Source of the DNA: an uncultured Candidatus Saccharibacteria bacterium
GTDB lineage: Bacteria > Patescibacteriota > Minisyncoccia > Phycocordibacterales > UBA918
Reading direction: 5' to 3'
Length of the DNA stretch: 64,000 nt
Assembly: GCA_964350735.1 (NCBI GenBank)
Contig: CAYGKO010000001.1
Location: 310,578-374,577, forward strand
A program made the position numbers and the translations under genes. Of this stretch, positions 16,498-49,097 are shown in pieces. A model generated the notes under the pieces. The model was not told the DNA's origin. It ran no database searches and saw only the letters and a list, made by a program, of their open reading frames with translations. Each line of letters begins with the position of its first letter. Within the stretch, counting starts at the first letter, position 1.

Positions 16498-16522
16498 ACC
16501 GCCCTCAAGGCGGTTATTTTAT
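16498..16522 (+). terminator. Rho-independent terminator after tRNA-Ser
   Basis: accgccctcaaggcggt + tatttt. Confidence 0.6.
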
Positions 16523-16526
16523 TGGG

Positions 16527-16650
16527 CGAAGACGAAGTAACAGTCCGGGGGACTGTTACGCGAGGATTCGAAAAGCTTTTGAGCTAGATTATGAGCAAAG
16601 CGAAATAATCTAGCCAAAAGGTATACTGCTCGTGTAACGAGAGAATCCTC
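16527..16650 (+). repeat. Structured repeat unit, copy 1. The second copy is at 48917-49026.
   Basis: It shares gtaacagtccgggggactgttacg(c/t)g(a/g)ggattcgaaaag and tatactgctcgtgta(a/g)cgagag with copy 2. The middle hairpin differs in sequence but keeps the same structure. Confidence 0.6.
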
Positions 16651-16717
16651 TCTGTGCTACCCCTTCCTTTTATTCTATTTTGACTTCACTAATTTTACGT
16701 CTATAATGCATCGCACT

Positions 16718-16852
16718 GGAGAGTTGGCTGAGTGGATGAATTGAGACCTGCGTCTCAATTCATCCGGTCCCAATCAAGATTGGGAAGCACGATATGAGCG
16801 TAAGCGAATCAGTGCTAGGAGGACGACTTGTCGGACACTCAACCAACTCTCC
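16718..16852 (+). other. Long stem-loop element built from a duplicated tRNA 5' half and its reverse complement, enclosing two internal hairpins
   Basis: ggagagttggctgagtgg (16718-16735) is identical to the 5' end of the downstream tRNA and pairs with actcaaccaactctcc (16837-16852). Internal hairpins lie at 16735-16764 and 16768-16785. Confidence 0.5.
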
Positions 16853-16864
16853 GTCGGTACGAAG

Positions 16865-16951
16865 TAACAGGGAGAGTTGGCTGAGTGGTCGAAAGCAGCA
16901 GTTTACTAAACTGCCGAGCCCTTACAGGCTCCAAGGGTTCGAATCCCTTAC
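16865..16951 (+). tRNA. Class-II (Ser-type) tRNA with the unusual anticodon loop TTACTAA (anticodon ACU by standard numbering). This tRNA is the integration target of the downstream mobile region.
   Basis: Acceptor GGAGAGT/ACTCTCC, D arm GCT-GAGTGGTCGAA-AGC, anticodon arm GCAGT-TTACTAA-ACTGC, long variable arm GAGCC-CTTACA-GGCTC, T arm AAGGG-TTCGAAT-CCCTT. Its 3' end is repeated at 49027. Confidence 0.6.
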
Positions 16952-16979
16952 TCTCCGCCGTCTAGAGCTAGCACGAGAC
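16938..16979 (+). repeat. attL-like direct repeat: tRNA 3' end plus a gcacgagacactat core. Its partner is at 49027-49068.
   Basis: tcccttactctccgccgtctagagctagcacgagacactat matches tcccttactctccgccgtttagagctagcacgagacattat at the far end of the accessory region with two mismatches. Confidence 0.65.
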
Positions 16980-17071
16980 ACTATCGTTCTAGCTTAACAA
17001 AAGCACCTGAATGGGTGTTTTTGTGCCTTGGGCAAATTAATCTATTTTAGAGATGTTTTATTACAAGCATT

Positions 17072-17524
17072 TTGATACAATATGCAGATACTATGTTTTT
17101 GTTAAACAGCCTGAAAAAAAATATTCTACTGTCTCTTCTTATGGCGGTATTTTTAGGCACGCTTTTTCTGAGTCTATTTCACATGTCTGCAGACATAAAC
17201 ACTACGACTCATATGTCTGGTTGTCCGATGTTGATGGAAGGGGGCGTTGTCTGCCAGATGGATTTTAATGAACACCTTACAGTTTGGTCAGCATTATCCT
17301 TAGCTATACCTGTTCTCCTGCTCACTCTACTGTTATTGCTACCATATGCAAAAGCCTTTTCAGTGGCTTGTTCCGTTTTATTTGGGCAGTCAATCTCAGT
17401 ATGGAAATTATCTACAGCAAGTTTCTATCAAAAAAAGTCTCCAACATACATTGTTAGGCCACTGCAAGAATTGTTTTCTAGCGGAATTTTACATCCTAAA
17501 ATTTACCACCCTGTTCTAAGCTAA
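17072..17524 (+). CDS. Small Cys/Met-motif membrane protein, paralogue of 29726-30115 (possible metal-binding protein)
   Basis: FLSLFHMS...GCPMLMEGGVVCQM motif and a C-terminus RPLQELFSSGILHPK shared with the paralogue at 29726. Confidence 0.5.
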   Translation: MIQYADTMFLLNSLKKNILLSLLMAVFLGTLFLSLFHMSADINTTTHMSGCPMLMEGGVVCQMDFNEHLTVWSALSLAIPVLLLTLLLLLPYAKAFSVACSVLFGQSISVWKLSTASFYQKKSPTYIVRPLQELFSSGILHPKIYHPVLS

Positions 17525-17602
17525 CTAAGTCACGATTGCTGTCTAGGCTGCTATTCGTGATACACGTTAGCTTTTTTGTATTTAATCACTTAGTTAACGT
17601 AT

Positions 17603-18361
17603 ATGGAAGAAAATTATAACAAAAACCAACCTAATCAATACCTAATCCCTTTGGCAATTGTAATTGCCGGGGCCTTTGTAGCAGGGGCACTCTACTTTAG
17701 TAATAGTGGAGCTACCGCTAATGCTCCAGTGGCAATTACGGATACTAATCAGCCAGTTGCAGCTGTTCCCGAACCAACTGGTTCAACCGACGCTGTTCGG
17801 CCAGTGACCAGCGAAGATCACATTAAAGGAAATCCCAATGCACCAATTAAAATCGTTGAATATTCAGACTTTGAGTGTCCATTCTGTAAGCGATTTCACG
17901 ACACTATGAACGAAGTGATGGATAAGTACGGGGATTCAGGCGAAGTTGCTTGGGTGTTTAGGCAATTCCCATTAGAACAATTACATCCAGTGAAAGCTCA
18001 ACGTGCCGCAGTTGCCACTGAGTGTGCCGCAGAGCAAGGAGGAAATGATGCTTTTTGGGCTATAGCCGACGGTTATTTTGCTGACCCTTCAACCGGGAAT
18101 AATCGAACGAACCAAGACGTGTTAATTCCGGAATTAGCAGCTGCAGCTGGATTGGATGCAGATCGTTTCAACGAATGTCTGGAGAGTGGAAAGTATGATG
18201 AGCATATACAAGCTGATATAGCGAACGCAGTTGAAACTGGCGGTCGAGGGACCCCATGGAGCGTCATGATTGGTCCAGATGGCAAAACTTATCCAATCAA
18301 TGGTGCCCAGCCACTGGCAGCAATTGAACAGTTAATTTCAATTGCTACGGATAATCAATAA
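17603..18361 (+). CDS. DsbA-like thiol:disulfide oxidoreductase (thioredoxin fold)
   Basis: N-terminal TM anchor and a CPFC active site (SDFECPFCKRFH). Confidence 0.75.
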   Translation: MEENYNKNQPNQYLIPLAIVIAGAFVAGALYFSNSGATANAPVAITDTNQPVAAVPEPTGSTDAVRPVTSEDHIKGNPNAPIKIVEYSDFECPFCKRFHDTMNEVMDKYGDSGEVAWVFRQFPLEQLHPVKAQRAAVATECAAEQGGNDAFWAIADGYFADPSTGNNRTNQDVLIPELAAAAGLDADRFNECLESGKYDEHIQADIANAVETGGRGTPWSVMIGPDGKTYPINGAQPLAAIEQLISIATDNQ

Positions 18362-18366
18362 CTACC

Positions 18367-18915
18367 ATGTACCGCAACGCACTTCAGTTAGTTTTTGTTC
18401 GTCCATTATACTGCTTGCTATTTCTAGCTGTAAGTTTTGTTGTTTTGTCGATTGCAATTCTATTGCCACACATTGGACTGATAAAAACTCTATGGCAGTA
18501 CGAATCTGTGACTGTAATTGAAATTGGACTACTTGTATTGAATCTCTATGGTTCACTCGGAACCAACTTCACTGTTCTCTCAGCCACATACACGGTACTC
18601 ATTGCGGTCTTGTTTGGTTTGCAAATAACCCTACTTACGCACTACATCAGAAGTGTGCGAAGCAAAGCAACCAACCTAGCAAACGTCGGGGCTAGCGGTA
18701 TTGGCGGACTCGTCAGTGGCTTTTTCGGCATTGGTTGTGCTGCCTGCGGAACTTTCTTATTGTCATCAATTCTTGCCTTGTTTGGAGCTGGAGGTGTACT
18801 GGCATGGTTGCCATTTGGCGGTGAGGAGTTCGGGTTACTTGGCGTCGGTTTATTGGTATATGCAAACCATCTCCTTATGAAGAAAATAAACGCACCACTA
18901 GTGTGTGCATCTTAA
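18367..18915 (+). CDS. Hypothetical membrane protein with a Gly-rich GCAACG segment
   Basis: Hydrophobic 182-aa ORF. Its function is not recognisable. Confidence 0.35.
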   Translation: MYRNALQLVFVRPLYCLLFLAVSFVVLSIAILLPHIGLIKTLWQYESVTVIEIGLLVLNLYGSLGTNFTVLSATYTVLIAVLFGLQITLLTHYIRSVRSKATNLANVGASGIGGLVSGFFGIGCAACGTFLLSSILALFGAGGVLAWLPFGGEEFGLLGVGLLVYANHLLMKKINAPLVCAS

Positions 18916-19480
18916 TCAACATTTATCCTTAATTAAAATATCTAACATGAAACTAGCACTTATTATTATAGGCCTATCAATCCTCCTTCTCGTCGGTGGT
19001 TCATGGTGGTCTACTAGCTCACAACAAAAAGCCTACGAACAAGAAATTGTCGGTATCACTTCAACTATCGTGACCGACCGTAGTCATGTGCAAACTGAGG
19101 TTGACTACAAGGACGCTCCACCAGTTGGCGGAAACCATCACCCAGTTTGGTTGAGTTGTAATGGTGATATCTATGATGAACCAGTTGTAGATGAAAATGC
19201 AGTCCATTCACTTGAGCATGGTGCTGTCTGGATTACATACCAGCCCAACTTACCAGTTGCAGATATAGAAACACTGGAGAAAAAAGTCGCTGGCTATTCC
19301 TTTATTAGCCCCTATCCAGAACAAGAGTCTCCGATCATGCTGACCGCTTGGGGTGTACAACTTCCACTTGATTCAGCTGATGATGAACGGGTAGACCAGT
19401 TCCTAGCCAAGTTCCGACAAGGTCCACAAACACCTGAACCAGGAGCTACCTGTAACGCTATTCCTGGTGGCATGCAATAA
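18905..19480 (+). CDS. DUF3105-like secreted/membrane-anchored protein. The start may be the internal ATG near 18947.
   Basis: GGNHHPVW...EHGAVWITY pattern with an N-terminal TM segment. Confidence 0.5.
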   Translation: MHLNQHLSLIKISNMKLALIIIGLSILLLVGGSWWSTSSQQKAYEQEIVGITSTIVTDRSHVQTEVDYKDAPPVGGNHHPVWLSCNGDIYDEPVVDENAVHSLEHGAVWITYQPNLPVADIETLEKKVAGYSFISPYPEQESPIMLTAWGVQLPLDSADDERVDQFLAKFRQGPQTPEPGATCNAIPGGMQ

Positions 19481-19482
19481 AT

Positions 19483-20106
19483 ATGAGTTACAAAATCATC
19501 AAAAAACAACTTCTGGCTTTGATGCTAGGAGTTGTGGTAGGAGTCAGTATGTTTCTGTTTGGACTGAACACGAATCTATCGAATAGTCCTAACGAAGCAG
19601 AGATTGGATTTGCTCAAGACATGAGCGTCCATCACCAGCAAGCAATTGAAATGTCATTCCTCGTCAGAGAACGCACTGACAGACAAGACATTCGAGGGTT
19701 TGCTTTTGACATCATTAACACCCAAGCCAATCAGCGTGGCATGATGCTGGGTTGGTTAGACTTATGGGAAAAACCCCTTACTACTACAAAAAAACCGATG
19801 ATGTGGATGGCCGATAGTATGTCTTCAATGAATCACAGTCAGATGAATGATTCGTTCACTTCAGGAGCATACATGCCTGGCATGGCTACCAAAGCTGAAG
19901 TGGATCAGTTAGTGACACTAGAGGACAAAGCGGCTGAAAAGTTGTTTCTAGAACTCATGATTCGTCACCATCAAGGCGGCGTCATGATGGCAGAAGGTGT
20001 TATTGAGCGTAGCGATACTGAAACCGTGACCCGCTTAGCTCAAACCATGGTTAATGGACAGCAAGCTGAAATTGATTATATGAACGAATTGTTAGAACAA
20101 TATTAA
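19483..20106 (+). CDS. DUF305 family protein (copper/metal-resistance associated)
   Basis: Two His-rich helical repeats, MSVHHQQAIEMS and MIRHHQGGVMMA. Confidence 0.65.
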   Translation: MSYKIIKKQLLALMLGVVVGVSMFLFGLNTNLSNSPNEAEIGFAQDMSVHHQQAIEMSFLVRERTDRQDIRGFAFDIINTQANQRGMMLGWLDLWEKPLTTTKKPMMWMADSMSSMNHSQMNDSFTSGAYMPGMATKAEVDQLVTLEDKAAEKLFLELMIRHHQGGVMMAEGVIERSDTETVTRLAQTMVNGQQAEIDYMNELLEQY

Positions 20107-20116
20107 TTACAATACT

Positions 20117-20776
20117 ATGAAAGAAGTACAAACAAACGAAGAGCCTATTAAACATAGTGACGGAAAAGACCAGCCTTGGCCACCGCGAGCCCAGCAAAAA
20201 CCACTGCTGATTTACGGCGCATTTGCCATTGTTATAGTTTTGGTGATAGGAGTAACTTTGTATACACAAGGTTTAGTCACTGCCGCTAAAGTAAATGGTC
20301 AGTCTATCAGTCGATTAAGTGTCGTTGGTGAGCTGGAAGAACAGGCTGGTGCGGCAGTGCTCGATTCGATGATTTCAGATATTCTGATTGAACAAGCTGC
20401 AACTGAGGCAGGTGTGACGGTGACTGACGATGATGTCGCAACAGAGATTGCGGCTATCGAATCACAGGTTACTGCTCAAGGAGGAACGCTGGAAGAAGTG
20501 TTAGCACAGCAAGGACTAGACAGAGAAAGTCTCGCGGGGCAAATTCGAACGCAAAAAATGCTCGAGTCACTTTTGTCTTCAGATATCGAAGTGACTGAAG
20601 CCGACATCGACGCTTTTTTGGAAGCTAATGGACCAGTACCCGAAGGTCAAGAAGAGGCGGCACGAGCGCAGGTTGCAGAACAGCTTAGAGGGCAAAAGTT
20701 TAGTACAGCAGCGCAAAGCTACGTTACTGGGTTGCGTACGCAGGCTAACATTCAGTATTTCGTTGATTATGAATAG
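20117..20776 (+). CDS. SurA-N-terminal-domain-like periplasmic chaperone (PpiD/SurA family, no obvious PPIase domain)
   Basis: N-terminal TM followed by a helical chaperone-like domain. Confidence 0.4.
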   Translation: MKEVQTNEEPIKHSDGKDQPWPPRAQQKPLLIYGAFAIVIVLVIGVTLYTQGLVTAAKVNGQSISRLSVVGELEEQAGAAVLDSMISDILIEQAATEAGVTVTDDDVATEIAAIESQVTAQGGTLEEVLAQQGLDRESLAGQIRTQKMLESLLSSDIEVTEADIDAFLEANGPVPEGQEEAARAQVAEQLRGQKFSTAAQSYVTGLRTQANIQYFVDYE

Positions 20777-22034
20777 TAGTATGAAATACATAATTTTTAG
20801 CTTCGTTTCTCTTATTCTCGTCGGCGGTGTATTTATAACACTGCACAACTCGGCAGAAACGACTTTCACCTACACTCGTGACAACTCTGAACGTACAACT
20901 GAAGTGAACGTTCAAATAGATGAGCCTTTAGAACAAACCCCTGTTGCTGTTGTTGTACCAACGACGGAAGTGACAGAGATTGAGATTCAACCTGGAGACA
21001 CATTCTCAACCATCATGGAAGAAGTAGCGGTTACCACCGAAGATCAAGATTCCATTCTGACGGCTGTTCAAGATGTGTACGACTTCACTAAACTACAAGC
21101 TGGAAAACTCATACATGTCGTATTTGCTCAAGATGCCCTCGCGTCAGTTGATTACGATCTGAACGATGACAAGAAAATTGTCATCGAAAATGTTGACGGT
21201 CAGTTTATCGCTAAAGAAGAAGCAGTTGAGTATGACGTTACTGAAGTAGTAAGGAGTGCAACAATTGAGTCTTCACTGTTTTATGATGGTGCAAGTGCTG
21301 GGTTGTCGGACAAGACTTTGGTTGAACTAGCTGAAATTTTTCAGTGGGATATAGACTTCAACACTGACATTCAGATTGATGACTCGTTTGTTGTTTTGTA
21401 TGAAGAACGAAAAACAATAGATGGAGTAGAAGCTAGTGCAGGAAAAATCCTTGCGGCTCAGTTCACTAATCAAGGTGAAATGTATGAGGCGTATTACTTT
21501 GAAACATCGAGTAGCACAGGTGGCTACTACGCTGCAAATGGTGAAAGTGTTGAACGTCAGTTCCTAAGCTCACCAATTGGTGTGGGGTATGTTAGTTCTG
21601 GCTTTAGTTATAGTCGACTGAATCCAATTACTAAACGTGTAACTCCGCACCGAGCAATCGACTATGCCGCTCCACACGGTACCCCAATCGTTGCTATTGC
21701 AGATGGAGAGGTGACATTGTCTGGCAGCAGGGGTCCGCTTGGTATTGCGATTGATATCGAGCATGGACAGTATATGAGTCAGTATGCTCACATGTCTCGT
21801 ATTGCCTCTGAAGTGAAGAAAAATCCAGAAGTGAAACAAGGACAAGTCATTGGCTATGTTGGTTCAACTGGTCAATCTACTGGTCCTCATTTGCACTACA
21901 CTCTCTTCAAAGATGGTACTCCTATCAATCCATCTGATGTGGATGTGTCAGTCAGTGAATCGTTGACTGACGTTGAGTTGGACGACTTTCAGACTATCGT
22001 AGAACAATATAGCGTTCAATTGGATGTAGATTAA
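20769..22034 (+). CDS. M23-family metallopeptidase (peptidoglycan endopeptidase), membrane anchored
   Basis: HxxxD and HxH M23 motifs (HRAIDYAAPHGTPI..., GPHLHYTLF). The ATG overlaps the upstream stop (ATGAATAG). Confidence 0.75.
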   Translation: MNSSMKYIIFSFVSLILVGGVFITLHNSAETTFTYTRDNSERTTEVNVQIDEPLEQTPVAVVVPTTEVTEIEIQPGDTFSTIMEEVAVTTEDQDSILTAVQDVYDFTKLQAGKLIHVVFAQDALASVDYDLNDDKKIVIENVDGQFIAKEEAVEYDVTEVVRSATIESSLFYDGASAGLSDKTLVELAEIFQWDIDFNTDIQIDDSFVVLYEERKTIDGVEASAGKILAAQFTNQGEMYEAYYFETSSSTGGYYAANGESVERQFLSSPIGVGYVSSGFSYSRLNPITKRVTPHRAIDYAAPHGTPIVAIADGEVTLSGSRGPLGIAIDIEHGQYMSQYAHMSRIASEVKKNPEVKQGQVIGYVGSTGQSTGPHLHYTLFKDGTPINPSDVDVSVSESLTDVELDDFQTIVEQYSVQLDVD

Positions 22035-22048
22035 AACAATAATTAAAT

Positions 22049-24004
22049 ATGACTGAAAAACACAATAAAAAAGCATCTGTCTGTGATGATTGTGTGGCAG
22101 GAGAAGGCGCAACATCAGCTACAGGTATTCAAGCTGTTTTCTCTCGTACTGGCGCACTTAAAATGCTTACGCCTATTTCAGGCATGTTGCTTGCAGTTGG
22201 CTTTCTAGGTTCATTTTCGTTACCCCAAGAAGGATGGAGTAATCTTTTTTACACACTATCCCTTCTGACTGGCTCCGTCTTTGTCCTACGAAGCGCCATT
22301 AATGGACTCATAAAACAGAGATTCTTAAATATTAGTTTCTTGGTAGTGATTGCCTCTATAGGGGCAATCTATATTGGTGAGTATGGTGAAGCGGCTGCAG
22401 TAGTTTTCCTCTTCTCATTAGCTGAATGGTTTGAGGGTTTTGGAGTTGAGCGGTCGCGTCGAGCCGTTGCATCACTTTTAGAAAAGTCTCCAAAAGTAGC
22501 AAAACTTCTTGATGGCAGCACTGTACCGGTTGAGGACGTTACTGTAGGTGCCATTGTGGTGGTGCGTCCAGGAGAGATGGTTCCGCTTGATGGGGTCGTG
22601 AAGAAAGGTGAATCAGCGGTAGATGAGGCGGCAATTACTGGAGAATCAATACCGGTTGATAAACTACCTGAGGACACCGTGTTTGCGGGCACACTGAACG
22701 TACAAGGGTACTTAGAAGTTAGGGTTGAAAAAGAAAGTGAAGACTCTACGTTTTCCCGTATCATCGCCCTGATCGAAGAAGCGCAGGCATCGCGTGCACC
22801 AACCCAAGCCTTTATTGATAGATTCGCTCGGTACTATACGCCTTTAGTTGTGGTGATTTCAGTTTTGGTGGCAGCTATTCCAACGCTCGTTTTTGGCTTA
22901 CCGTTTGATGACTGGCTCTATCGAGCGATTACTCTTTTGGTGATTGCTTGTCCGTGTGCCTTGGTTATTGCAACCCCAGTAGCAATAGCCTCATCTATTG
23001 GTGGAGCGTCACGCAATGGCATCTTGATAAAAGGTGGAAAGTATCTTGAGAAATTGGCAAAAGTAAAAGCGATTGCGTTTGATAAGACACGTACACTCAC
23101 ATATGGACGACATACAGTTACTGACGTTCTGGTGTTTGGCTCACATACAGAAGAGGAAGTGATCGCTGATGCCGCTGGCATTGAAGCGTTTTCTTCACAT
23201 CCCTTGGCTGAGGCGATTATCGAATACGCCAAAGAGAAGAAAATTACACCGCATAGCATGGACTCCTATCAGAATGTTGCTGGCAAAGGAGGTAAGGCTC
23301 GGTGTTTAGTGTGCAAAGCCAGTAGTCATATTGGCAATGTAAAACTAATGAATGAAAACGGTATTGACACCAAGGTCTTTTTGGCTGATGTGGAGCGACT
23401 CGAAAGAGAAGGTAAAACAGTTGTGTTAGTGGCAGAAGAAAAGGAACTGATTGGTGCCTTGGCTATTTCTGATGCAGTCCGCAGCGAAGCCAAAGACGTG
23501 GTGGTGGAACTAAGGAATACTGGAGTGGAAAGTGTCATGCTCACCGGCGATAATGCACACAGTGCGGCGTACATTGCTGGATTAGTTGGCATTAATGATG
23601 TCCATGCGTCACTCTTGCCTGAAGATAAGGTAGTTAAGGTAAAAGAACTTAAAGCCAAATATGGTCCGACTGCCATGATTGGTGACGGAGTGAACGACGC
23701 GCCGTCTTTGGTCACATCTGACGTCGGGTTTGCCATTGGCGCCGGAGGAACGGATGCTGCAATTGAGTCTTCTGACATAACACTTCTGTCAGGTGATTTG
23801 AGAACCGTACCCCAGTCAATTCGACTGGCAAAAGCAACCATGCGGACTATCCATGTCAACGTGGCTTTGGCACTTGGCATCAAAGTGCTGTTCCTGATTT
23901 TGGTGCCATTTGGACTGACTAATCTTGTGTTTGCCATTGCGGCCGATTCAGGTATGGCGATCGTGGTTATCCTCAATAGTCTGCGATTATTTTCTATTAA
24001 GTAA
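22049..24004 (+). CDS. P1B-type heavy-metal translocating ATPase (CopA/ZntA-like) with an atypical DKTRT phosphorylation motif
   Basis: CPC ion-transduction motif (ACPCALVIATP), SSHPLAEAI, MLTGDN, GDGVNDAPSL. The invariant DKTGT reads DKTRT (gat aag aca cgt aca). Confidence 0.8.
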   Translation: MTEKHNKKASVCDDCVAGEGATSATGIQAVFSRTGALKMLTPISGMLLAVGFLGSFSLPQEGWSNLFYTLSLLTGSVFVLRSAINGLIKQRFLNISFLVVIASIGAIYIGEYGEAAAVVFLFSLAEWFEGFGVERSRRAVASLLEKSPKVAKLLDGSTVPVEDVTVGAIVVVRPGEMVPLDGVVKKGESAVDEAAITGESIPVDKLPEDTVFAGTLNVQGYLEVRVEKESEDSTFSRIIALIEEAQASRAPTQAFIDRFARYYTPLVVVISVLVAAIPTLVFGLPFDDWLYRAITLLVIACPCALVIATPVAIASSIGGASRNGILIKGGKYLEKLAKVKAIAFDKTRTLTYGRHTVTDVLVFGSHTEEEVIADAAGIEAFSSHPLAEAIIEYAKEKKITPHSMDSYQNVAGKGGKARCLVCKASSHIGNVKLMNENGIDTKVFLADVERLEREGKTVVLVAEEKELIGALAISDAVRSEAKDVVVELRNTGVESVMLTGDNAHSAAYIAGLVGINDVHASLLPEDKVVKVKELKAKYGPTAMIGDGVNDAPSLVTSDVGFAIGAGGTDAAIESSDITLLSGDLRTVPQSIRLAKATMRTIHVNVALALGIKVLFLILVPFGLTNLVFAIAADSGMAIVVILNSLRLFSIK

Positions 24005-24015
24005 TAAAGTCTGAT

Positions 24016-24306: not shown

Positions 24307-24312
24307 TCAGCT

Positions 24313-24801: not shown

Positions 24802-24833
24802 ACTGCTTACGTTTGGTCAAATAGTTATATATT

Positions 24834-27299: not shown

Positions 27300-27307
27300 A
27301 ATATAAT

Positions 27308-40398: not shown

Positions 40399-40407
40399 AA
40401 CCGGAAT

Positions 40408-41403: not shown

Positions 41404-42248
41404 ATAATGATTTACTGAAAAAGGTGGTTGAATTGGAAAGTTTGGCCAAGCTTCTGTTTGATAAGGCAGTCTCTCTACGGTACTCAGCGTTGGGAATCGA
41501 GGTTCTGGCGGGGTTGCTAGCAGTCGCTATTGCCTTATTACAACCGTCTAAGACGGTGCTGTTTTGGTTTGCGGTAATTGGGTTCGTAATGCTGACTGTT
41601 TCGTATGTGCTGAAGGTATATTTCTCTATTATTTACGAACGGGCTGAAACCATGCGACGGCAAGCAGTACTGGCCAATGCTTTGGGTTGGGACATCCAGA
41701 AGGTTCAATTCAGTGAGTGGAGGCAATTAGCTGGAAAGAATCTCTTGAAGAAGTTAGAGAGTGCAACGCTTGACGAGGATTACTATGCAACAAAACAAGA
41801 ATCAGGCGCTTTACGATTACTTGAGATGACACAAGAATCAGCTTTTTGGACACGGCATCTATATAATAGTATCAAGACGTATCTATGGATAATTTTCGGT
41901 ATTGCGACCTTACTGTTCCTTACTGTTCTCACAGTAACATCCTCATACACACTCAACGGCAATCTTTCATTGCAAATTGCTTACGTTGTGTACCTACTAA
42001 TGCCGCTTATCTTAACTATTGATGTATTGGGTTGGGCAATCAAGCTACACATTGTCGCTGGTTCTATTAAAGAAATCGAATGTGACCTGGAACGACTAAA
42101 GGAAAATCATCAGGTGAATGAAGTTAACGTATTGAGACTGGTGTCAGAATACAACTGCCAAGTCATCCAGGGTTTCCCAGTCCCTAGCTGGTTTTTCAGC
42201 ATGCACCATGACCACACAGCTGTTCTTTGGAAAAAAAACAATGAGTAG
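41400..42248 (+). CDS. Multi-pass membrane protein translationally coupled to the NTase: candidate membrane-disrupting effector (SLATT-like)
   Basis: ATGA start/stop overlap with the NTase gene. Two pairs of TM helices separated by a soluble segment. No enzymatic motif. Confidence 0.45.
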   Translation: MNNDLLKKVVELESLAKLLFDKAVSLRYSALGIEVLAGLLAVAIALLQPSKTVLFWFAVIGFVMLTVSYVLKVYFSIIYERAETMRRQAVLANALGWDIQKVQFSEWRQLAGKNLLKKLESATLDEDYYATKQESGALRLLEMTQESAFWTRHLYNSIKTYLWIIFGIATLLFLTVLTVTSSYTLNGNLSLQIAYVVYLLMPLILTIDVLGWAIKLHIVAGSIKEIECDLERLKENHQVNEVNVLRLVSEYNCQVIQGFPVPSWFFSMHHDHTAVLWKKNNE

Positions 42249-42669
42249 CCCGTTTTCGATTGGTGAAATATGTGCAGTTATTTTTTCACAGACTTCGCAC
42301 ACTATTTATGCAACTGTATTAGAGTTGGTTATTTTTCTCTGGCCGTGGTATTGGCTCCTTATCGTACTTGGTCTTGGTGGTTGGATTGCTTTTGAAATTA
42401 CGACTAGAAACGGCACTATTCATCACAACTCAGAAAATGGTTTTTCACCAGTGTTTAATAGTTTTGTAGGGAGTTGTACATATACTGGATTACAAACATT
42501 TTTTTTCTTCATACTGACGTCGCTGTTTGGTTCAGGTGTCTATTGTTTCGTCTGGCCATTTGCAATACATATCTTGATATTTCTATCGACGGGTAAGTTA
42601 CTACACGTTATTGGATTTTGGCCGAGACTTGAGCGTCCAAACAATAGACGTCGGAATAGGAGGCGGTAA
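42241..42669 (+). CDS. Small membrane protein with an Arg-rich C-terminal tail, overlapping the preceding gene (ATGAGTAG)
   Basis: Two or three TM helices and a C-terminal RPNNRRRNRRR. The start is trimmed to the ATG at 42241, which overlaps the upstream stop. Confidence 0.4.
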   Translation: MSSPFSIGEICAVIFSQTSHTIYATVLELVIFLWPWYWLLIVLGLGGWIAFEITTRNGTIHHNSENGFSPVFNSFVGSCTYTGLQTFFFFILTSLFGSGVYCFVWPFAIHILIFLSTGKLLHVIGFWPRLERPNNRRRNRRR

Positions 42670-42731
42670 AAGTTACAGTTACATGTAACTTTAGATCTTT
42701 GATCTGTGTAACTTTTGTAACGTTTTCTTGC

Positions 42732-42830
42732 GCACGAGACACTATCGAATTGAATTCTGAATGTAAGCTAATCGGTCAAGCCCTGCTTGACCGACCACGG
42801 TTCTAGCTCGAGACAGCCCGCAGTTGACGA
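42732..42830 (+). repeat. Complex ~100-bp repeat (att-like), direct repeat of 49543-49690
   Basis: gcacgagacactatcg...ctga...gtaagctaatcggtcaagcc...cacggttct...ctcgagacagcccgcag shows about 80% identity to the 49543 copy. Confidence 0.6.
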
Positions 42831-44275
42831 ATTGAGGCATTTTTAGGGGTATTTGCGAGTACTTGATACTCGTCTTTAAACTGAAAGCTAGCCACATTTT
42901 CGTTCTCAATCGTAAGGTTCGAAAGCAACTTTTCTAGCAGTTTACGTTTAGATTCATCTTTTGCTTCGATGTACTCATTTGAGGCTGTATTTCCTTGTTT
43001 AAATACGTTTTTGATTTGTTCGAAAGTAGAATCTGAGAGTGGTCCTTTTTTATCAATTTCTTTGAGTTGATTTTTGAGAGCGGTGCGGTCGTTTTCGATT
43101 TGTTTCATCTTTTCCTCAAAGAGAGGTTTTTTAATAAGAAGTGATGTATATCCATCAACTAAGGTAGATTCTTTCGTGTCGAGCAATTTTAGCTCTTCTA
43201 GGATGCTTTCTCGTGCAGAGTCAGTGTAGGTGTCAGTTGAAGTGTTTTTCTGTCTGTAGGCTTCGGCAGAGAGCTTGATAGTTTCTTCATCAATATGAAG
43301 TTCTTCAAAGAGTTTTCCGATCAGTGCGTCCATTTTCTCGGACCGCAGATACTTGCGGGGAGCAGAGCAGATTTTCTTGCCGTTGGTGCAGTAATAGTAC
43401 TGATGTCCTTTCTTCGTATCTCCTGTATAGGTACAGCCACAGTTGGCACAAGTAACAAAGCCACGAGCAGAGTAGAAATGTTTTTCTTTCTTAGGGTGGT
43501 TCCGATTATTGAAGACGTTTTGAACCGACTCGTATAATTTACTGCTGACAATAGCTTTGTGTTTCCCTTGGTAGACAGTACCTCTAAATTCCATTAGTCC
43601 GGTGTAGAAGATTTGGTTGAGGATTTTGTGGATTTGAGATTTATACACCTTGTTACCAGCAGGGGTACGCATTCCCTCGTTGTACATAATGTCTACTAGG
43701 TCAGTGAGAGTGTACGCACCGGTAGCGTAGAGGTCGAAGATACGTTTTACATACTTGGCGCGTTTGGGTACGACTTTCACTAGTCTGTCTTCTTTGTCAT
43801 TACGATAGCCATAGGGAGCAATGTTCGGCCATTCTCCACGTTCTAGTTTTGCTCTATTGCCACGCTTCACGTTTACACTCAGATCACGGAGATATTGAGT
43901 AGCCATAGCTTGTTCAATACTCATGATGAGTACGTTGTCATGAGGAGAGTAGGTTTTCTCGAATGTTGTTATGCATTGAATATTGCCTTTTTGAAGTAGC
44001 CACTGAATTTGTCCTCCGTCTACTGGATTACGGGTGAGACGGTCGATTTTCCAGCAAAGAATAGCATCAGCTTCACCAGCTAGAATTTTAGTCATCATCT
44101 GATTGAAGACAGGGCGACCAGGAGCTTTGGCAGACATGCTCTCAGTCATGATTTCTACAATCTCAATACCCTGAGCTTCAGCGAGTCGTTTGAGTTCATT
44201 TTCTTGTGACTCTAAAGAGAGGACCTGTCTGTCTTCAGTATCAGTTGATTTTCGAGTGTAGAGAATATATTTCAT
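42803..44275 (-). CDS. Large serine recombinase
   Basis: YTRKSTDTEDRQVLSLESQ catalytic N-terminus, recombinase domain, and a Cys-rich zinc ribbon (CANCGC...YYYC). Confidence 0.85.
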   Translation of the reverse strand: MKYILYTRKSTDTEDRQVLSLESQENELKRLAEAQGIEIVEIMTESMSAKAPGRPVFNQMMTKILAGEADAILCWKIDRLTRNPVDGGQIQWLLQKGNIQCITTFEKTYSPHDNVLIMSIEQAMATQYLRDLSVNVKRGNRAKLERGEWPNIAPYGYRNDKEDRLVKVVPKRAKYVKRIFDLYATGAYTLTDLVDIMYNEGMRTPAGNKVYKSQIHKILNQIFYTGLMEFRGTVYQGKHKAIVSSKLYESVQNVFNNRNHPKKEKHFYSARGFVTCANCGCTYTGDTKKGHQYYYCTNGKKICSAPRKYLRSEKMDALIGKLFEELHIDEETIKLSAEAYRQKNTSTDTYTDSARESILEELKLLDTKESTLVDGYTSLLIKKPLFEEKMKQIENDRTALKNQLKEIDKKGPLSDSTFEQIKNVFKQGNTASNEYIEAKDESKRKLLEKLLSNLTIENENVASFQFKDEYQVLANTPKNASIRQLRAVSS

Positions 44276-44357
44276 AACTGAATGTTTATCTGATAATACG
44301 TCTTATTTCTTCATTCTTCAAATATGACTAATTAGTCAAGGGACTGGGTCGCTTGGG

Positions 44358-45158
44358 CTACGCCCACGCGCGACCCCAGTCCTCAAATAAGTCATCATCA
44401 TATGTTGTACCTTTGATAGCTTCGATGAGCTTTTTTGCATCGGTGAAGTACATGTATTCACCGGGAAGTACATACACATATGGATTCATGTTTTTGACAC
44501 GTTTCTTACTCATACCAGATTTATTCCATTGACGTAGTCGTGCTTTTTGCCAGCGACGAAAGATTCGGAAGTTGCGTCTAATAATCTTGATGTCTTCTTT
44601 TGTTCCGACAATGATAGCGATGTTTCTGTGTAGAAGTGATCGACTATAGCCCCAGAACTGACCACAATCGTGATAAAAGTAGGGAACGGTCTTTTGAGCT
44701 TCTTTGGTTAAATACGAAGCGAGATAGCGCTTGAAGGCTTCGGTCTTACGAATAGGAGATATATGCGCTCCGTGTTCACGATGGCGTTTGTCTTTTGATC
44801 CTACGATCTCATACCACATTCGTTTAAGTTCATCTTCGTTGATTTCTTTATCGGCAAGAATATGGAAGTGACACGCACCTCGTTCTTGAAATTCCATGAA
44901 CCAAAACCAGCGGATACCTCTGTAGTTAAAACGGAGCATCATCTTGTGCAGATGGGACTTTACGATTTTTCCATCCTTTGGGAATTTTCGAGGATATGTG
45001 AGCCCGATTTCGTGCGTCATCTCGTCTGGTAAATTCCTCAGAATATGGCGTGCGCGCTTGATCGAACCGTACGAAAGCCTTTTGATTTGGCCCCTTTCTT
45101 TCCGATTCTGGTCGGTTAATAAATTCTTCGACTGATTGTTCTTGTTTCTTTTTTCCAT
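44358..45158 (-). CDS. Rolling-circle replication initiator (HUH endonuclease, phiX gpA-like double-Tyr type). The start is uncertain, with an internal ATG near 45020.
   Basis: HUH motif ACHFHIL and motif 3 YLASYLTK, which resembles phiX174 gpA YVAKYVNK. Confidence 0.55.
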   Translation of the reverse strand: MEKRNKNNQSKNLLTDQNRKERGQIKRLSYGSIKRARHILRNLPDEMTHEIGLTYPRKFPKDGKIVKSHLHKMMLRFNYRGIRWFWFMEFQERGACHFHILADKEINEDELKRMWYEIVGSKDKRHREHGAHISPIRKTEAFKRYLASYLTKEAQKTVPYFYHDCGQFWGYSRSLLHRNIAIIVGTKEDIKIIRRNFRIFRRWQKARLRQWNKSGMSKKRVKNMNPYVYVLPGEYMYFTDAKKLIEAIKGTTYDDDLFEDWGRAWA

Positions 45159-45553
45159 AAGGTATTTGTGTGCAAGGTCCTATCTTCAAATCGAATGGCC
45201 ACATCTCAATTTTTAAGGTCTCGTCTTTATGCCAACGAGGCCCTTGGATTAAGGGGTGCAATATGTCGATTGGTTTTAGCTTCCCAGCGTCAGCTAAGAA
45301 GTATCGGACTTGCTTCATTTTTTATTTTGTACGAGCTCACTGAACACTTCGTAGAAGTCAGCTAGAGCGTTTAGGTGCTCGATAGCTGTTTCATCACTAA
45401 TTTCCTCACCGTGTCTGATGAGTACATATAGCTTCATGCGTTTGATAAGCTCGTGGTTAAAACTCATAACCTACGCATTGTCGAGTCGCCATGTGTCGGA
45501 AAAGGAGTACAATGGAATAGTGATGGCTAAAAACCTCGCTATCTTTACAGAGT

Positions 45554-46459
45554 ATGAAAACTTTTAAGACTAAAAAACCCTCATTCTTCAAGAAAGGAAC
45601 GCTGGTTTTTTCTGACTCTGGTCATAAGCTAGTGAGAGACGGCAAATATTACAGGTGCTCTAAAAACACAAACGGAGAGTGCGATCTGCATAAACCAATA
45701 TCGCTAGAAGCGTTCGAGACAAAATTCTCTCGCTTAGCTACTAAGCTTTACTCTGAACGATTGGACTTTGATTCAATTTTCAAAAATCTCTTTCGCGACC
45801 ATTTCTGGGATATCGTTTTTGGTATAGATGAACGCCTGCTGGGGAAAGAGGAAGTGGCGGATTCTACTATCGAACTGCTAAAGAAGGATGCAGGAAATGG
45901 TAAGAAACCGTCTCGATCGTTAGTAAAGGATTTTGAAGAGAACTACATAGAATCACTTAAAGCTGATTATCCGGTAATGTTGCTGGGTTATGCAGTAGGC
46001 ATGGTGCGTGTTTGTTCTATCGAACAAAAGAAATCTGAAATGGGGAGAAGCTTAGCTCATTTCTCTAAAAAGATTTATATCGGAAATGATGGAGAGATTG
46101 AGGTTATAGAATTAGAGCGTTGGGCTTGGTACGTATTTAATGCCGTGATCAAGAAAGCTTATCCTGAGTATCTCAATGAACGAGAGGATTTAAAATTTAT
46201 GAATGAAGAAGACGTTCTGCATACGATGAGTATCACAAAAGCATGCGAAGCGTTTGGTGAAACTGAATTCAATGATGCTCTTGGTGAAAATTTCATTGCT
46301 TGTATAGGCTGGATTAAATTCCTCAAGGAATCTTTCACAGGAATGTTTGATGACGGTCAGGAGGGTGAAATGAACTCCCAGTTTCCGGAACTGATAGAAA
46401 AAATGCAGAATGACCCAGCGCTAGGGATTATGATGAGAGTTAGTGCTATAACAAAATAA
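45554..46459 (+). CDS. Hypothetical protein; first gene of a coupled pair
   Basis: 301-aa ORF. Its stop is 3 nt before the next ATG. Confidence 0.4.
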   Translation: MKTFKTKKPSFFKKGTLVFSDSGHKLVRDGKYYRCSKNTNGECDLHKPISLEAFETKFSRLATKLYSERLDFDSIFKNLFRDHFWDIVFGIDERLLGKEEVADSTIELLKKDAGNGKKPSRSLVKDFEENYIESLKADYPVMLLGYAVGMVRVCSIEQKKSEMGRSLAHFSKKIYIGNDGEIEVIELERWAWYVFNAVIKKAYPEYLNEREDLKFMNEEDVLHTMSITKACEAFGETEFNDALGENFIACIGWIKFLKESFTGMFDDGQEGEMNSQFPELIEKMQNDPALGIMMRVSAITK

Positions 46460-46461
46460 TT

Positions 46462-47577
46462 ATGAAAATTGATAGACAGTTAGTAGAGAACTACAATGAA
46501 CTTGATTGGGAAAGACTTCTTAGAGCAGATCTGGGTAACGCTGGTCAATTGAGCGCAGCTAAACCTTATTTCGACAGAATTAAGAATACTTTTGACTCGA
46601 TTTTAAATAATCCAATTACAGATAGTCTTTCAGATGATGCTAATCAAAGAGTTGAAGTGGAGCTAAATAACTTCATAACTTTTTTGCAAAGTGAAATTGT
46701 GAATTTCTCAGATGTCTCATTGAGAAAACAAAAGCTTACAGCGGTACAAAATAAAGAGTGGCAGATAATAACTAACTTAAATGCTGTCATTTCATACCTG
46801 GTTCTTAATGAGGAAAAAGTGAATATTAAAGACACTGAACTATTACTAGAGAATGCAAAGAAGGAATTAGATTTGGAAAGAGCAAAGTCAAAGTCCCAAA
46901 ACGAAAATATAGCAAGCACTTTCGATAAGTTATCCGAGTCTATAAAACTGGCTGATTCATTAGAGAGTAAATCAGGTGTTATAAAAACTGCAATCATTAG
47001 AGCAGAAGAATGGATAAGTAAAAATGAAGATGCTGTTCAACTCATTTTAAAAAGTAACGCTACAGATTCTGCTAAAAAAGCTGAAGAACATAAAACCTTT
47101 AAGTTTGAATGGGTGAGTATTTGGCTTTTTAAGCACATTCCATACTTACAAAAAATAAAGCAACCTGCAGTTGAAGGTACATTCTTTTGGATTTTGTCCG
47201 CTATTATCTCTGGAACTTTTGTAATGTCTATTATAGGTTTTTTTGTTTATCTTGATTATTTAGGTCGTGAAATTAATGTAGCTAGTGTTCTGTTGAGGTT
47301 ATCAGCAGTCTTAATACCTGCTTACTTTACATTCTTCAGTGCTCAACAATATTTAAGCCATCGAAGGTTATATGAAGCATATAGATTCAGAGACGTAACC
47401 CTGCAAACAATGATTAGTTTGAGAGACCAAAGTCCAGACGATACGTTGGCAAAAGAGCACATTCTTAAAAAAGCTGTTGAGGTAATGTTCGCTGAGCCAA
47501 AAATGAGCGGGGAAGTTAAGTACGACAAGCAGGTTGTGTCTCAATTGTTGGACTTGGCTAGGAACAGATTAGGTTAA
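46462..47577 (+). CDS. Hypothetical coiled-coil protein with two C-terminal TM helices; second gene of the pair
   Basis: About 230 aa of coiled coil, then TM helices GTFFWILSAIISGTFVMSIIGFFVYL and LLRLSAVLIPAYFTFFSA, followed by a conserved-looking Y/R helix. Confidence 0.4.
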   Translation: MKIDRQLVENYNELDWERLLRADLGNAGQLSAAKPYFDRIKNTFDSILNNPITDSLSDDANQRVEVELNNFITFLQSEIVNFSDVSLRKQKLTAVQNKEWQIITNLNAVISYLVLNEEKVNIKDTELLLENAKKELDLERAKSKSQNENIASTFDKLSESIKLADSLESKSGVIKTAIIRAEEWISKNEDAVQLILKSNATDSAKKAEEHKTFKFEWVSIWLFKHIPYLQKIKQPAVEGTFFWILSAIISGTFVMSIIGFFVYLDYLGREINVASVLLRLSAVLIPAYFTFFSAQQYLSHRRLYEAYRFRDVTLQTMISLRDQSPDDTLAKEHILKKAVEVMFAEPKMSGEVKYDKQVVSQLLDLARNRLG

Positions 47578-47695
47578 AATATTTCTAACCCCAGCATGCA
47601 CTTAGGGTTGACATTTGCTTGTATAAGTGTTTCTCTTCTATAGAATCGCTCTTTAAAGAGCACCTTACAACACAAAAAATACAGAGGAGGCAGAC

Positions 47696-48787
47696 ATGGA
47701 TCTGACCAAAATCAACGAAATCTTGGCCGCAGAAAGCAAAGCGTTCAAAGAAGGTGTCCAGGACGCTATCGACGCAGCAATTGATCGACGGAAGGATATG
47801 AAGTCTGAAGTCGCAACAATCCTTGGTCTCGACAGCGGCACTACTCTCACAGAGGAAAGCTTCTTCGCAATCCTCGATGGATTTACAGAGATCTCTGGCA
47901 ATCTCGATTCTGTCTTGCAGCAAGCTGGCTTCGACTCAAAGGTCGCAGGCGCTTGGCTTCGTAAAGAAGACCCTCCCAAGGAGGGGTTTCGTGGGCCAAC
48001 GCTTCGTATGTTGGCGGAGGTAGTCTTTGACTACTACGCCGACAACCGTCTTTATCATGACCTGCATCAGGTCTTGGAAGACTGGGGTGACCCTGAGGTA
48101 CTCGCAGCAGCGGCTCATAAGACCCTACCTCTCGATTCTGCACTGGAAGAACTCGGTGTGTTTGATGATGTTAGGGCGCTTGACCAGGGCACAAGAATCC
48201 GTAACTGCATTAAGAATGAAGGTCTTATCACTCTTGGCGAATTGCTGAGTCGTGCGGAAATCGAGTGGCGGCGTGTGCCAAACTTTGGGAACAAGAGTCT
48301 GAGAACCTTAGAGGCTTATCTTAAGGACCGTTTTGGTACTGGATTCATAGACCTCGAAAATCCAGACCCTGACTTAGAACGTTTCCAGAGTATGTCATGG
48401 GAGAGACTGAGCCTTAAAGCGGCTGCGGGTAAACTTTTAGTTACGCAATGGCATGAGAGTGAGAAGAAGCCAGAATACGCTGACCTTGATTACCATGCGT
48501 TTCAGCCCGTATTGCGCGAAAAGGGGCCTGAAGAGGTTTATGTGCAAATTTATGCTGACCATGACTTGATGGAGGCTCTCAAAGAGGCAGGCATTCTGCA
48601 CTGCACTCAGTTAGCAACAGCTCCGCAAAAGGTACTTGATCAAATCTGTCATGGTCAAACTGAATGGCAAGAACAACTTCCGAAGCTCTTAGACTGTGAT
48701 CGTTCCAGTCACTATTATAGGTCTTTGTCGCTGGGAATGGGAACTCCTCTGTTTCTCGACCCAGAGGTTGAAGTATATACCTCATAA
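47696..48787 (+). CDS. Protein with an RNA polymerase alpha-subunit C-terminal-domain-like (helix-hairpin-helix) module; higher GC than its neighbours
   Basis: TRIRNCIKNEGLITLGELLSRAEIEWRRVPNFGNKSLRTLEAYL matches the alpha-CTD pattern (RSxNCLKxxGIxTxGDL...PNxGKKSL). Codon GC is visibly higher than in flanking genes. Confidence 0.5.
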   Translation: MDLTKINEILAAESKAFKEGVQDAIDAAIDRRKDMKSEVATILGLDSGTTLTEESFFAILDGFTEISGNLDSVLQQAGFDSKVAGAWLRKEDPPKEGFRGPTLRMLAEVVFDYYADNRLYHDLHQVLEDWGDPEVLAAAAHKTLPLDSALEELGVFDDVRALDQGTRIRNCIKNEGLITLGELLSRAEIEWRRVPNFGNKSLRTLEAYLKDRFGTGFIDLENPDPDLERFQSMSWERLSLKAAAGKLLVTQWHESEKKPEYADLDYHAFQPVLREKGPEEVYVQIYADHDLMEALKEAGILHCTQLATAPQKVLDQICHGQTEWQEQLPKLLDCDRSSHYYRSLSLGMGTPLFLDPEVEVYTS

Positions 48788-48795
48788 GAAGCTTT

Positions 48796-48829
48796 GGGCC
48801 GTGCGATGATAATCGCGCGGCTCTTTTTC
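48796..48829 (+). terminator. Rho-independent terminator
   Basis: gggccgtgcgatgataatcgcgcggctc + tttttc. A second hairpin, cacgcccgcaagggcgtttttg, lies at 48889-48909. Confidence 0.6.
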
Positions 48830-48916
48830 TTGGTTTATTATCTCAAGAATAGTTCGGATTTCGTCCCACACTGCCCGCACAGACAATCACGCCCGCAAGG
48901 GCGTTTTTGTATGTGC

Positions 48917-49026
48917 GGAGAGTAAAGTAACAGTCCGGGGGACTGTTACGTGGGATTCGAAAAGGTTGCCTGATATTTTCGCCAGAAAATATCGACAACC
49001 TATACTGCTCGTGTAGCGAGAGAAAT
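48917..49026 (+). repeat. Structured repeat unit, copy 2. It begins GGAGAGT and is immediately followed by the duplicated tRNA 3' end.
   Basis: Same conserved blocks as 16527-16650. The middle hairpin (gatattttcgccagaaaatatc within ggttg...caacc) differs in sequence from copy 1 but keeps the structure. Confidence 0.6.
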
Positions 49027-49068
49027 TCCCTTACTCTCCGCCGTTTAGAGCTAGCACGAGACATTATG
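49027..49068 (+). repeat. attR-like direct repeat: duplicated tRNA 3' end plus the cacgagacattat core, followed by a terminator hairpin
   Basis: tcccttactctccgccgtttagagctagcacgagacattat. The hairpin agcacgagacattatgtttcgtgct + ggtttt lies at 49054-49084. Confidence 0.65.
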
Positions 49069-49097
49069 TTTCGTGCTGGTTTTGGTATAATTGCATT

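Follow-up and report, generated by a model that had tools for sequence, protein, structure and literature searches.

Downstream of a tRNA-Ser gene with the anticodon ACU, a chromosomal stretch of an uncultured Candidatus Saccharibacteria bacterium (contig CAYGKO010000001.1, positions 310,578 to 374,577; hereafter the window, 64,000 nucleotides (nt) in all) carries some 33 kb of accessory, mobile DNA. Here metal-resistance genes, two large serine recombinases (LSRs), phage-like and defence genes and a rolling-circle replication gene (Rep) are punctuated by short structured modules. We propose that the region from ~16,960 to ~49,756 is a composite genomic island, quite probably assembled by successive site-specific insertions at this one hotspot downstream of tRNA-Ser(ACU). 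Its largest part, element A, combines Cu/Zn resistance cargo, LSR1 and a phage-like and defence half, and ends at the right in a module with two short cores (core a and core b). A nested element with LSR2 and Rep follows, then a terminator, a structured unit (unit B) and a small cassette (cassette C) with a decayed end module. The features are collected in Table 1, and the loci used for comparison are referred to by L numbers. Their closest representatives are labelled Kaiserbacteria, Nomurabacteria and Paceibacterota; judged by these matches, the host DNA is a Patescibacteria chromosome.

One relative, L153, separates the nested element from the rest. Its alignment is collinear with the window up to 42,821 and again from 48,88x, without exactly the 6.06 kb between, and core b in L153 leads directly to the terminator, the unit and the copy of the tRNA 3' end. 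The LSR2/Rep element has been inserted into the right-end module of A, and the region therefore records at least two events. The motif GCCCGCA flanks the inserted element (42816-42822 and 48873-48879), its site in the right-end module reads GCCCGC|A, and the two LSR2 junctions share this motif together with partial similarity. A core at 42733 (S2) had been considered as the left attachment site (attL) of an LSR2 element reaching from S2 to the right repeat copy (S3); this candidate was dropped once L153 gave the true boundaries. L153 is also uneven in its likeness to the window, being 92% identical at the nucleotide level over 27255-34712 and only ~71% beyond, and a mosaic history follows from this drop.

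These observations bear directly on the simplest account, in which one integration brought in a 32-kb element whose attL and attR are the 42-bp repeat reported by the initial annotation. An island that carries recombinase genes and ends, on the side away from the tRNA, in a directly repeated 3' fragment of it has the Islander signature (PMC4383910), and the locus displays this. Against a single integration stand the exact gap in L153, the fall in identity to L153 after 34,712, and the five cores and two decayed end modules that punctuate the region. Moreover, the hallmark sequences do not stop at 49,084, where the right limit was first drawn, and run on to ~49,756. We consider it very unlikely that one element accounts for the whole.

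Relatives were found by scanning a genome collection with the tRNA 3' end, by scanning metagenomes and by blast. The genome scan was too generic (120 loci from many phyla), and only L020, L050, L065, L085, L096 and L120 were useful. L120 (Ca. Kaiserbacteria) and L085 (Ca. Paceibacterota) have the RecG and malic-enzyme left flank in common with the window, and L020 (Ca. Nomurabacteria) the malic-enzyme gene, a structured leader (element X) and the tRNA region; an exact-protein look-up of the left-flank genes returned no match. In L120, tRNA-Ser(ACU) leads into a plain terminator and from there into core genes, with no island and no PAL, the name we give to a conserved imperfect palindrome downstream of tRNA-Ser genes. 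The tRNA block is inverted relative to the window, and its other side is flanked by ComF-like and PilM genes. L135 has the window's two tRNA-Ser genes in identical form, and its tRNA-Ser(ACU) is followed by an intact PAL, a different open reading frame (ORF), core a/core b and a further cassette, again with no 32-kb island.

Table 1. Features of the tRNA block and the island, in window coordinates
Feature	Position	Strand	Evidence or remark
tRNA-Ser(GCU), core gene	16400-16488	+	ARAGORN and Rfam; sequence identical in L135
Terminator after tRNA-Ser(GCU)	16498-16514		Terminator scan
Unit A, tRNA-end-matched structured element	16524-16663	+	Covariance model, 130.9 bits
Sigma-70-like promoter, TTGACT-16 nt-TATAAT	16680-16707	+	Consensus scan, 11/12 matches
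Element X, structured leader	16718-16852	+	Read from sequence
tRNA-Ser(ACU), hotspot gene	16871-16959	+	ARAGORN and Rfam, 57.9 bits; anticodon loop reads ACU
Left repeat copy S1: tRNA 3' end, PAL-left, shortened right arm (TCGTTCTAGCTT)	16944-16994	+	Repeat search
Element A	~16,960-42,821		~25.9 kb
Cu/Zn resistance cargo	16995-32552	+	Pfam
LSR1, large serine recombinase	33263-34555	-	Pfam Resolvase, Recombinase, Zn_ribbon_recom
LOOT RNA, in variable slot between LSR1 and TerL	34703-34822	+	Rfam RF03000, 72.9 bits (gathering threshold 46.4), full-length model
Phage-like and defence half of element A	34886-42669		Pfam, PHROGs, PADLOC; includes ORF153
TerL	35641-37248	-	PHROGs, E=5e-72; preceded by Ltp
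TerS	37229-37630	-	PHROGs
N6/N4 methylase	37617-38900	-	
S24 repressor	39754-40398		
CBASS cyclase	40408-41403		PADLOC, E=1.9e-54; Pfam SMODS
CBASS 4TM effector	41400-42248		PADLOC, E=2.7e-25
Right-end module of A: core a (CACGAGACACTAT), ~60 nt with hairpin, core b (CTAGCTCGAGACAGCCCGC)	42730-42821	+	
Nested 6.06-kb element: LSR2, rolling-circle Rep, three ORFs without assigned family	42822-48879		Pfam, PHROGs
LSR2	42803-44275	-	Last 6 codons and stop inside core b
Rolling-circle Rep	44358-45158	-	
Terminator before unit B	~48889-48910		
Unit B, arms match tRNA-Ser(ACU)	48914-49042	+	Covariance model, 136.2 bits
Right repeat copy S3: tRNA 3'-end copy, complete PAL, GGTTTT	49027-49077	+	Repeat search
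Cassette C and decayed end module	49078-49756	+	
ORF147	49098-49541		Preceded by TATAAT
Second core a	49544-49556		
Core b of the decayed end module	49675-49689		
Terminator of the decayed end module	49697-49731		
Unit left-arm remnant	49741-49756		16 nt

Element A itself is a recurrent family that combines metal cargo, LSR1, a TerL-TerS-methylase-S24 core and variable defence cargo. Its left junction (S1) and the metal genes of 17072-24801 recur in the same order beside a different tRNA-Ser(GCU) in L124/L129, where the junction is near-identical (1 mismatch in 90 nt), and variants occur in L128 and L139; the cargo gene order is common to L124 at 62-98% amino-acid identity. In L153 and L156/L157, the 3' end of LSR1 borders directly on the metal genes. 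On the other side of LSR1, these contigs carry a small ORF, TerL, TerS, the methylase, the S24 repressor and variable defence cargo, namely PycTM in L153 and, in L156, a DncV-like cyclic-oligonucleotide-based antiphage signalling system (CBASS). The core module is present in L153 and L156-L160, as well as in the IMG/VR loci L161-L165 (S24 in L163 and L165; methylase, TerS, TerL, cargo and LSR in L161-L164). The distal end of A, which reads GTAACTTTTGTMACKTTTTCTTGCG, core a (CWCGAGACACTAT), ~60 nt and core b, is conserved in the window, L153 and L156/L157 and similar in L136, and the core a/core b module is also found in L140 and L135. Serial or tandem integration at one hotspot, as first suggested for this locus, is thus supported by the island-free L120 and L135, by the recurrence of A and by L153 without the LSR2 element.

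The phage-like genes allow another reading of part of A, namely that its LSR1 half is a decayed prophage or phage satellite, that the metal genes were inserted later between it and the tRNA, and that the element moves by helper-phage packaging. TerL, TerS, the methylase, the S24 repressor and Ltp are all present (the matches to TerL and TerS bear out the phage-like module of the initial annotation), and no portal, capsid or tail gene is; the remaining ORFs match no structural PHROG or Pfam family, so that the half does not qualify as an intact prophage. The IMG/VR loci L161-L165 also have the same core; in them, 115-200 nt free of metal genes separate the 3' end of the LSR gene from that of a tRNA-Glu or tRNA-Asp gene in convergent orientation. 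No portal or capsid gene was found in these five loci among the matches to the window's relatives, the other ORFs there having been left without annotation. On the other hand, three independent contigs (L153, L154 and L156/L157) have metal genes abutting LSR1, and metal genes come after every S1-type junction, which means that the composite spreads as a unit as well; nor is a helper phage known. We hold the satellite account to be a serious possibility for this half, if short of an even chance.

The direct repeat at the two ends of the region was re-examined by repeat search. As first described, it exists and overlaps the tRNA 3' end, but its left copy lies 6 nt to the right of the position given; the true coordinates are 16944-16994 and 49027-49077, with 45/51 positions identical (88% over 51 nt), and the chance of a match this good in 64 kb is negligible. 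The repeat consists of the last 16 nt of the tRNA and GT(C/T)TAGAGCTAGCACGAGACA(C/T)TAT, that is, the tRNA part and the left half of PAL. In the right copy, the 16 nt of the tRNA end lie at 49027-49042. This copy is preceded, as had been noticed, by a structured repeat unit (48914-49042), and it is completed by a hairpin and then GGTTTT; the counterpart of the unit on the left side is 16524-16663.

PAL reads AGCTAGCACGAGACA-CTA-TGTTTCGTGCTAGTT, with two 15-bp arms around a 3-bp centre, and is followed by TTTTG and often by TATAAT and an ORF. A metagenome scan with the tRNA end and the first 21 nt downstream returned 18 contigs. Across these and the Saccharibacteria genome L065, PAL follows tRNA-Ser genes with the anticodons GCU, ACU, UGA, GGA and CGA, and the contexts diverge directly after GAGACA-CT(A) of PAL. 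The complete PAL, as in S3, follows tRNA-Ser in L125, L126, L130, L135 and L137. A core shorter than the repeat, GCWCGAGAC, occurs five times in the window, always on the plus strand (16971, 42732, 42806, 49054 and 49543), with 0.74 occurrences expected by chance, and all five cores, like the repeat, are located only at module boundaries. These cores are additions to the initial annotation, as are the separate boundaries of the LSR2/Rep element and the hallmarks up to ~49,756. One frame of the core spells the peptide ARDTI at 16972-16986, 42733-42747 and 49544-49558 and at ~350-365 in L135, as at every copy; we judged this incidental, and L135 alone has a long ORF that reads through the core.

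Module ends follow a pattern as well. All of them (the tRNA, element A, the LSR2 element, the terminator with unit B, the ORF147 cassette and the decayed end) read tRNA-3'-like (C)CCGC(C), and element A and the ORF147 cassette both open with PAL-left. We regard the 42-bp repeat as a recurrent module boundary, which may or may not stem from element A's own integration. It is probably not the simple attL/attR pair of one 32-kb event, because its tRNA part is a unit right arm of a kind found without the island, and the rest is the conserved start of many cassettes. Of the 'classic attL/attR signature' that had been read from it, the direct repetition of a tRNA 3' fragment stands; the recombinases are serine enzymes, with no tyrosine integrase among them, so that the signature departs from the classic one, and the repeat is a recurrent module boundary.

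The right copy could then have been in place before the island. In this account, it is the right arm of a resident unit plus the PAL start of the next cassette, and the island was inserted between the tRNA and this pre-existing trailer. Units matched to the tRNA do lie directly after tRNA-Ser, tRNA-Arg and tRNA-Gln genes, some with no recombinase homologue seen nearby (L126, L138, L141, L120 and L135), and CCGC(C) closes every module. The base at +3 after CCGCC also tracks the right-hand module, being C or A in 5/5 A-type junctions and T in 12/14 others. For tRNA-Ser(ACU), the prediction fares less well: the gene is directly followed by a unit in none of L120, L135, L127, L134 and L139, and units with ACU arms always stand behind a core a/core b module (window, L153, L136 and L140), which suggests travel with the elements. 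We consider a resident trailer possible but doubtful. Of the two candidate crossover points, the PAL centre and the tRNA-like end, the +3 pattern and the LSR2 junction together weakly favour the latter.

The composite reading needs movers, and the two LSRs are the candidates. Both match PF00239, PF07508 and PF13408 and keep their catalytic motifs (YARKS in LSR1, YTRKS in LSR2), as expected from the first description of two large serine recombinases; Pfam found no tyrosine recombinase (Phage_integrase) in the 40 island ORFs, the only recombinases being these two. LSR1 has at least 8000 homologues among the matches listed, the best 120 of which are 72-99% identical and come from Patescibacteria data. 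In five further loci, LSR genes converge on the 3' end of a tRNA gene: L050 and L096 (tRNA-Ser), L163 (tRNA-Glu), L164 (tRNA-Asp) and L143 (tRNA-Gln). In the last of these, the LSR (63% identical to LSR2) overlaps the tRNA by 61 nt, and the far end of its element carries a tRNA-Gln-matched unit and a further copy of a tRNA 3' fragment. This placement across loci suggests a general preference for tRNA genes. Counting overlapping as well as convergent genes, LSRs at tRNA-Ser, -Gln, -Glu or -Asp 3' ends were seen in L050, L096, L143-L147, L163 and L164, which are contigs of other Patescibacteria or of viruses.

From this, we infer a mechanism in which LSR1 and LSR2 would catalyse insertions at or beside the 3' end of a tRNA or tRNA-like sequence, with crossover either at the tRNA end or at the PAL centre. 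Modules without a recombinase would have been moved in trans. Each insertion would bring its own tRNA-3'-like end and so regenerate the target, allowing tandem stacking much as staphylococcal cassette chromosome (SCC) elements stack at rlmH.

Several observations weigh against this view of the island. Attachment (att) sites of a typical LSR are an attP and attB of ~40-50 bp with inverted half-sites that share little beyond a central dinucleotide, and the attL/attR hybrids are distinct from both. Instead of the 2-bp crossover typical of such sites, S1 and S3 have 42-51 bp in common, and each of them looks like the unoccupied site. LSR1 lies in the middle of element A rather than beside an end, and its att sites remain putative; the closest LSR2 homologue (79% identity, L141) lacks all of these cores. 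The right repeat copy can be explained without integration, as a unit arm and a conserved cassette start. Comparison with relatives, the check put forward by the initial annotation, found L120 and L135 without the island and L153 precisely without the LSR2 element, but no same-species site with identical flanks: no close strain offers a clean empty site, the L120 block being inverted and L135 carrying other cassettes. Finally, no excision junction or circular form was found when the predicted circle junctions and PAL were sought in IMG/VR. The sole PAL-left match there (L166) was set aside as a chance match of high G+C. Loss of A and the LSR2 element would join tRNA...CTCTCCGCC to the sequence after 49,043 or 49,077, and loss of the LSR2 element as in L153 would join ...GAGACAGCCCGC to ACAGACAAT. 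The stretch of 39.0-49.7 kb is covered by one Logan contig of the source sample (ERR3534985), evidence against a misassembly in this part.

The units are structured elements of 130-165 nt, whose left arm is the reverse complement, and whose right arm is a direct copy, of the adjacent tRNA 3' end. Besides the two in the window, copies lie in L120, L126, L135, L136, L138, L140 (three), L141, L143, L145 and L153. From left to right, each consists of a terminator; a left arm complementary to the acceptor 3' strand of the neighbouring tRNA; hairpin H1, which is conserved (CAGTCTGGGAGACTG); a segment reverse-complementary to the T-loop and T-stem 3' strand (e.g. GGATTCGAA); a long variable hairpin H2; TACTG with hairpin H3 (loop TGTAA); and a right arm that directly repeats the final 19-22 nt of the tRNA. 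Conservation extends to H3, and H2 covaries. RNAalifold on six copies predicted 39 pairs, 19 of them with compensatory changes, and a covariance model finds further copies. Which sequence the arms carry depends on the tRNA (Ser-GCU, Ser-ACU, Ser-UGA, Arg-UCU, Arg-UCG and Gln). In unit B, both left-arm segments, GCGGAGAGT and GGATTCGAA, match tRNA-Ser(ACU) at 9/9 positions, and the Arg-UCU unit matches equally well (GGAATCGAA against TTCGATTCC, 9/9). The arms of unit A match the 3' end of tRNA-Ser(GCU), with a degenerate right arm, and orthologous copies lie in L135 and L120.

Units may come and go. L143 and L145 are otherwise near-identical and differ by a 145-nt unit-like insert (~11516-11690). 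It sits precisely where the LSR gene meets tRNA-Gln, with the repeat CGCCAAGATCAT on either side; the difference points to a recent gain or loss of a unit. Even at a permissive threshold, Rfam returned no family for the units, element X or the end modules. G-U and A-C mismatches in the unit helices are equally frequent (8 and 8) and do not separate a role as RNA from one as DNA. The units could act as recombination sites specified by structure, or as leader/trailer RNAs that control tRNA maturation by alternative pairing.

Element X is the mirror image of the downstream units, placed upstream of the tRNA behind a near-consensus promoter. Its parts are a copy of the 18 nt with which the tRNA begins, internal hairpins and a reverse complement of this copy, and X-like elements lie upstream of tRNA-Ser in L020 (~3990-3850), L124, L135 and L138 (~7600-7730). 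Judged by its sequence and position, the promoter at 16680-16707 would drive X and tRNA-Ser(ACU). The initial annotation had recognized a Ser-type tRNA here; its coordinates (16865-16951) give way to those of ARAGORN and Rfam (Table 1). With its anticodon ACU (A34), the hotspot tRNA-Ser adjoins a normal tRNA-Ser(GCU). Adenosine at position 34 is unusual in bacterial tRNA-Ser; the gene is also present in L120, L127, L134, L135 and L139, and is therefore no artefact of the island. Elsewhere in the window, a tRNA-Ile(UAU) lies at 9616-9689 on the minus strand and also in L120 (174-247); in most bacteria, AUA is read by a lysidine-modified CAU tRNA instead.

How does the island compare with known systems? 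Genomic islands at tRNA genes are textbook knowledge and are attributed to tyrosine integrases. The tDNA islands catalogued by Islander and TIGER resemble this locus in several respects: they lie between an intact tRNA and a directly oriented 3' fragment of it, they have an on-board recombinase and resistance and defence cargo, and several of them are stacked at one tRNA gene. They differ in using tyrosine integrases in place of large serine recombinases, and the tRNA fragment is embedded here in a palindromic structured unit. According to a 2014 survey, large serine recombinases were not known to target tRNA genes. Reports of genomic islands in Patescibacteria have been confined to general terms (PMC12455944). 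The island thus belongs to a known kind, the tandem genomic island at a tRNA gene, and is unusual in that serine recombinases are apparently its movers.

The SCC/SCCmec elements of staphylococci are composite islands at rlmH that are moved by the large serine recombinases CcrAB and CcrC. They share with the present island serine recombinases, the use of one gene's 3' end, short direct repeats that regenerate the site, and tandem modules free of recombinase. In the present island, a tRNA or tRNA-like 3' end takes the place of rlmH as the target, the host belongs to another phylum, and the punctuation modules are structured and much larger (~330 nt). By analogy, we suggest that the island works like an SCC composite; the likeness would be one of mechanism and not of membership, there being no insertion in rlmH. 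Phage satellites such as phage-inducible chromosomal islands (PICIs) are alike in combining an integrase, an S24/CI-like repressor, terminase genes and defence cargo with no virion structural genes. Element A differs from them in encoding TerL besides TerS, in its serine integrase and in 15 kb of metal-resistance cargo.

Integrons, in turn, resemble the region in their promoter-proximal cassette arrays and in structured, partly palindromic modules akin to recombination sites, with structure conserved above sequence. The region has no IntI tyrosine recombinase, and no Rfam family of the attC type matches its punctuation modules, so it is no integron; the modules are ~330 nt long with tRNA-end mimics in place of attC, and the cassettes (0.5-26 kb) have their own promoters. 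Quite tentatively, and at less than even odds, we suggest that LSR elements in Patescibacteria may be abundant, may use tRNA 3' ends and may build integron-like, self-regenerating arrays, with units and X linked to them as a possible new class of element.

The finding is of wider interest because a hotspot in Patescibacteria and at least five other loci pair LSRs with tRNA 3' ends, and members of the LSR1 family are very numerous in these bacteria, which are ultra-small and depend on hosts. The island also illustrates how reduced genomes gain Cu/Zn resistance and CBASS anti-phage defence as portable modules. Should LSR1 act on PAL, as we suspect, the two would be a candidate recombinase/att pair for genetic tools, of which, to our knowledge, there are almost none in these organisms. 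The tRNA-end-matched units form an unexplained family of structured elements that is open to testing.

As to cargo, the metal-resistance island named in the initial annotation is borne out by Pfam, with DsbA-like, DUF3105, DUF305, M23 peptidase, P-type ATPase, rhodanese, PAP2, ZIP, CDF, CsoR, MauE, DUF411 and multicopper oxidase genes. A 46-nt repeat (87% identical) within this block, at 17455-17500 and 30061-30106, marks the C-termini of ORF150 and ORF129, a pair of small, paralogous membrane proteins that each finish in ...RPLQELFSSGILHPK. The CBASS of the defence half is of type I, a CD-NTase cyclase beside its effector with no Cap2/Cap3. Upstream of LSR1, at a distance of 148 nt, is the LOOT RNA. 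The close match of the window with L153, L154 and L155 breaks off at 34712, the 5' edge of this RNA, and no LOOT RNA was found in 15 related loci scanned. Also in favour of an assembled island, G+C content is lower there (0.41-0.43) than in the left (0.46) and right (0.44) flanks. In the nested element, Pfam and PHROGs confirm the rolling-circle Rep first claimed there, and no relatives of it were found in IMG/VR. Inoviruses have been reported in the candidate phyla radiation (CPR) (PMC6813254), and the G2P type of Rep prompted an inovirus reading, which we dropped: the other ORFs match no Pfam, PHROG or PADLOC family, and no small coat-like ORFs were seen.

To the right, L135 has an arrangement parallel to cassette C with a different ORF. 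Between the decayed end and the ComF-like and PilM genes (57,011-58,738), the window continues at 49838-57007 with ORF154, Vut_1, DUF1294, RecQ, a ZIP transporter and a histidine kinase, and no hallmark sequence occurs in this stretch. Vut_1 and RecQ are 78% identical to a pair in the non-syntenic contigs L149-L152, other Vut_1 relatives being alphaproteobacterial, and these relatives, not being syntenic, yield no clean empty site. By synteny with L120, everything up to 57,007 may be accessory, perhaps as an older acquired segment. At the far left of the window, an ORF of 1332 amino acids (2048-6046) contains three diverged repeat copies spaced by ~510 nt (4439-5508), which probably represent a tandem domain repeat.

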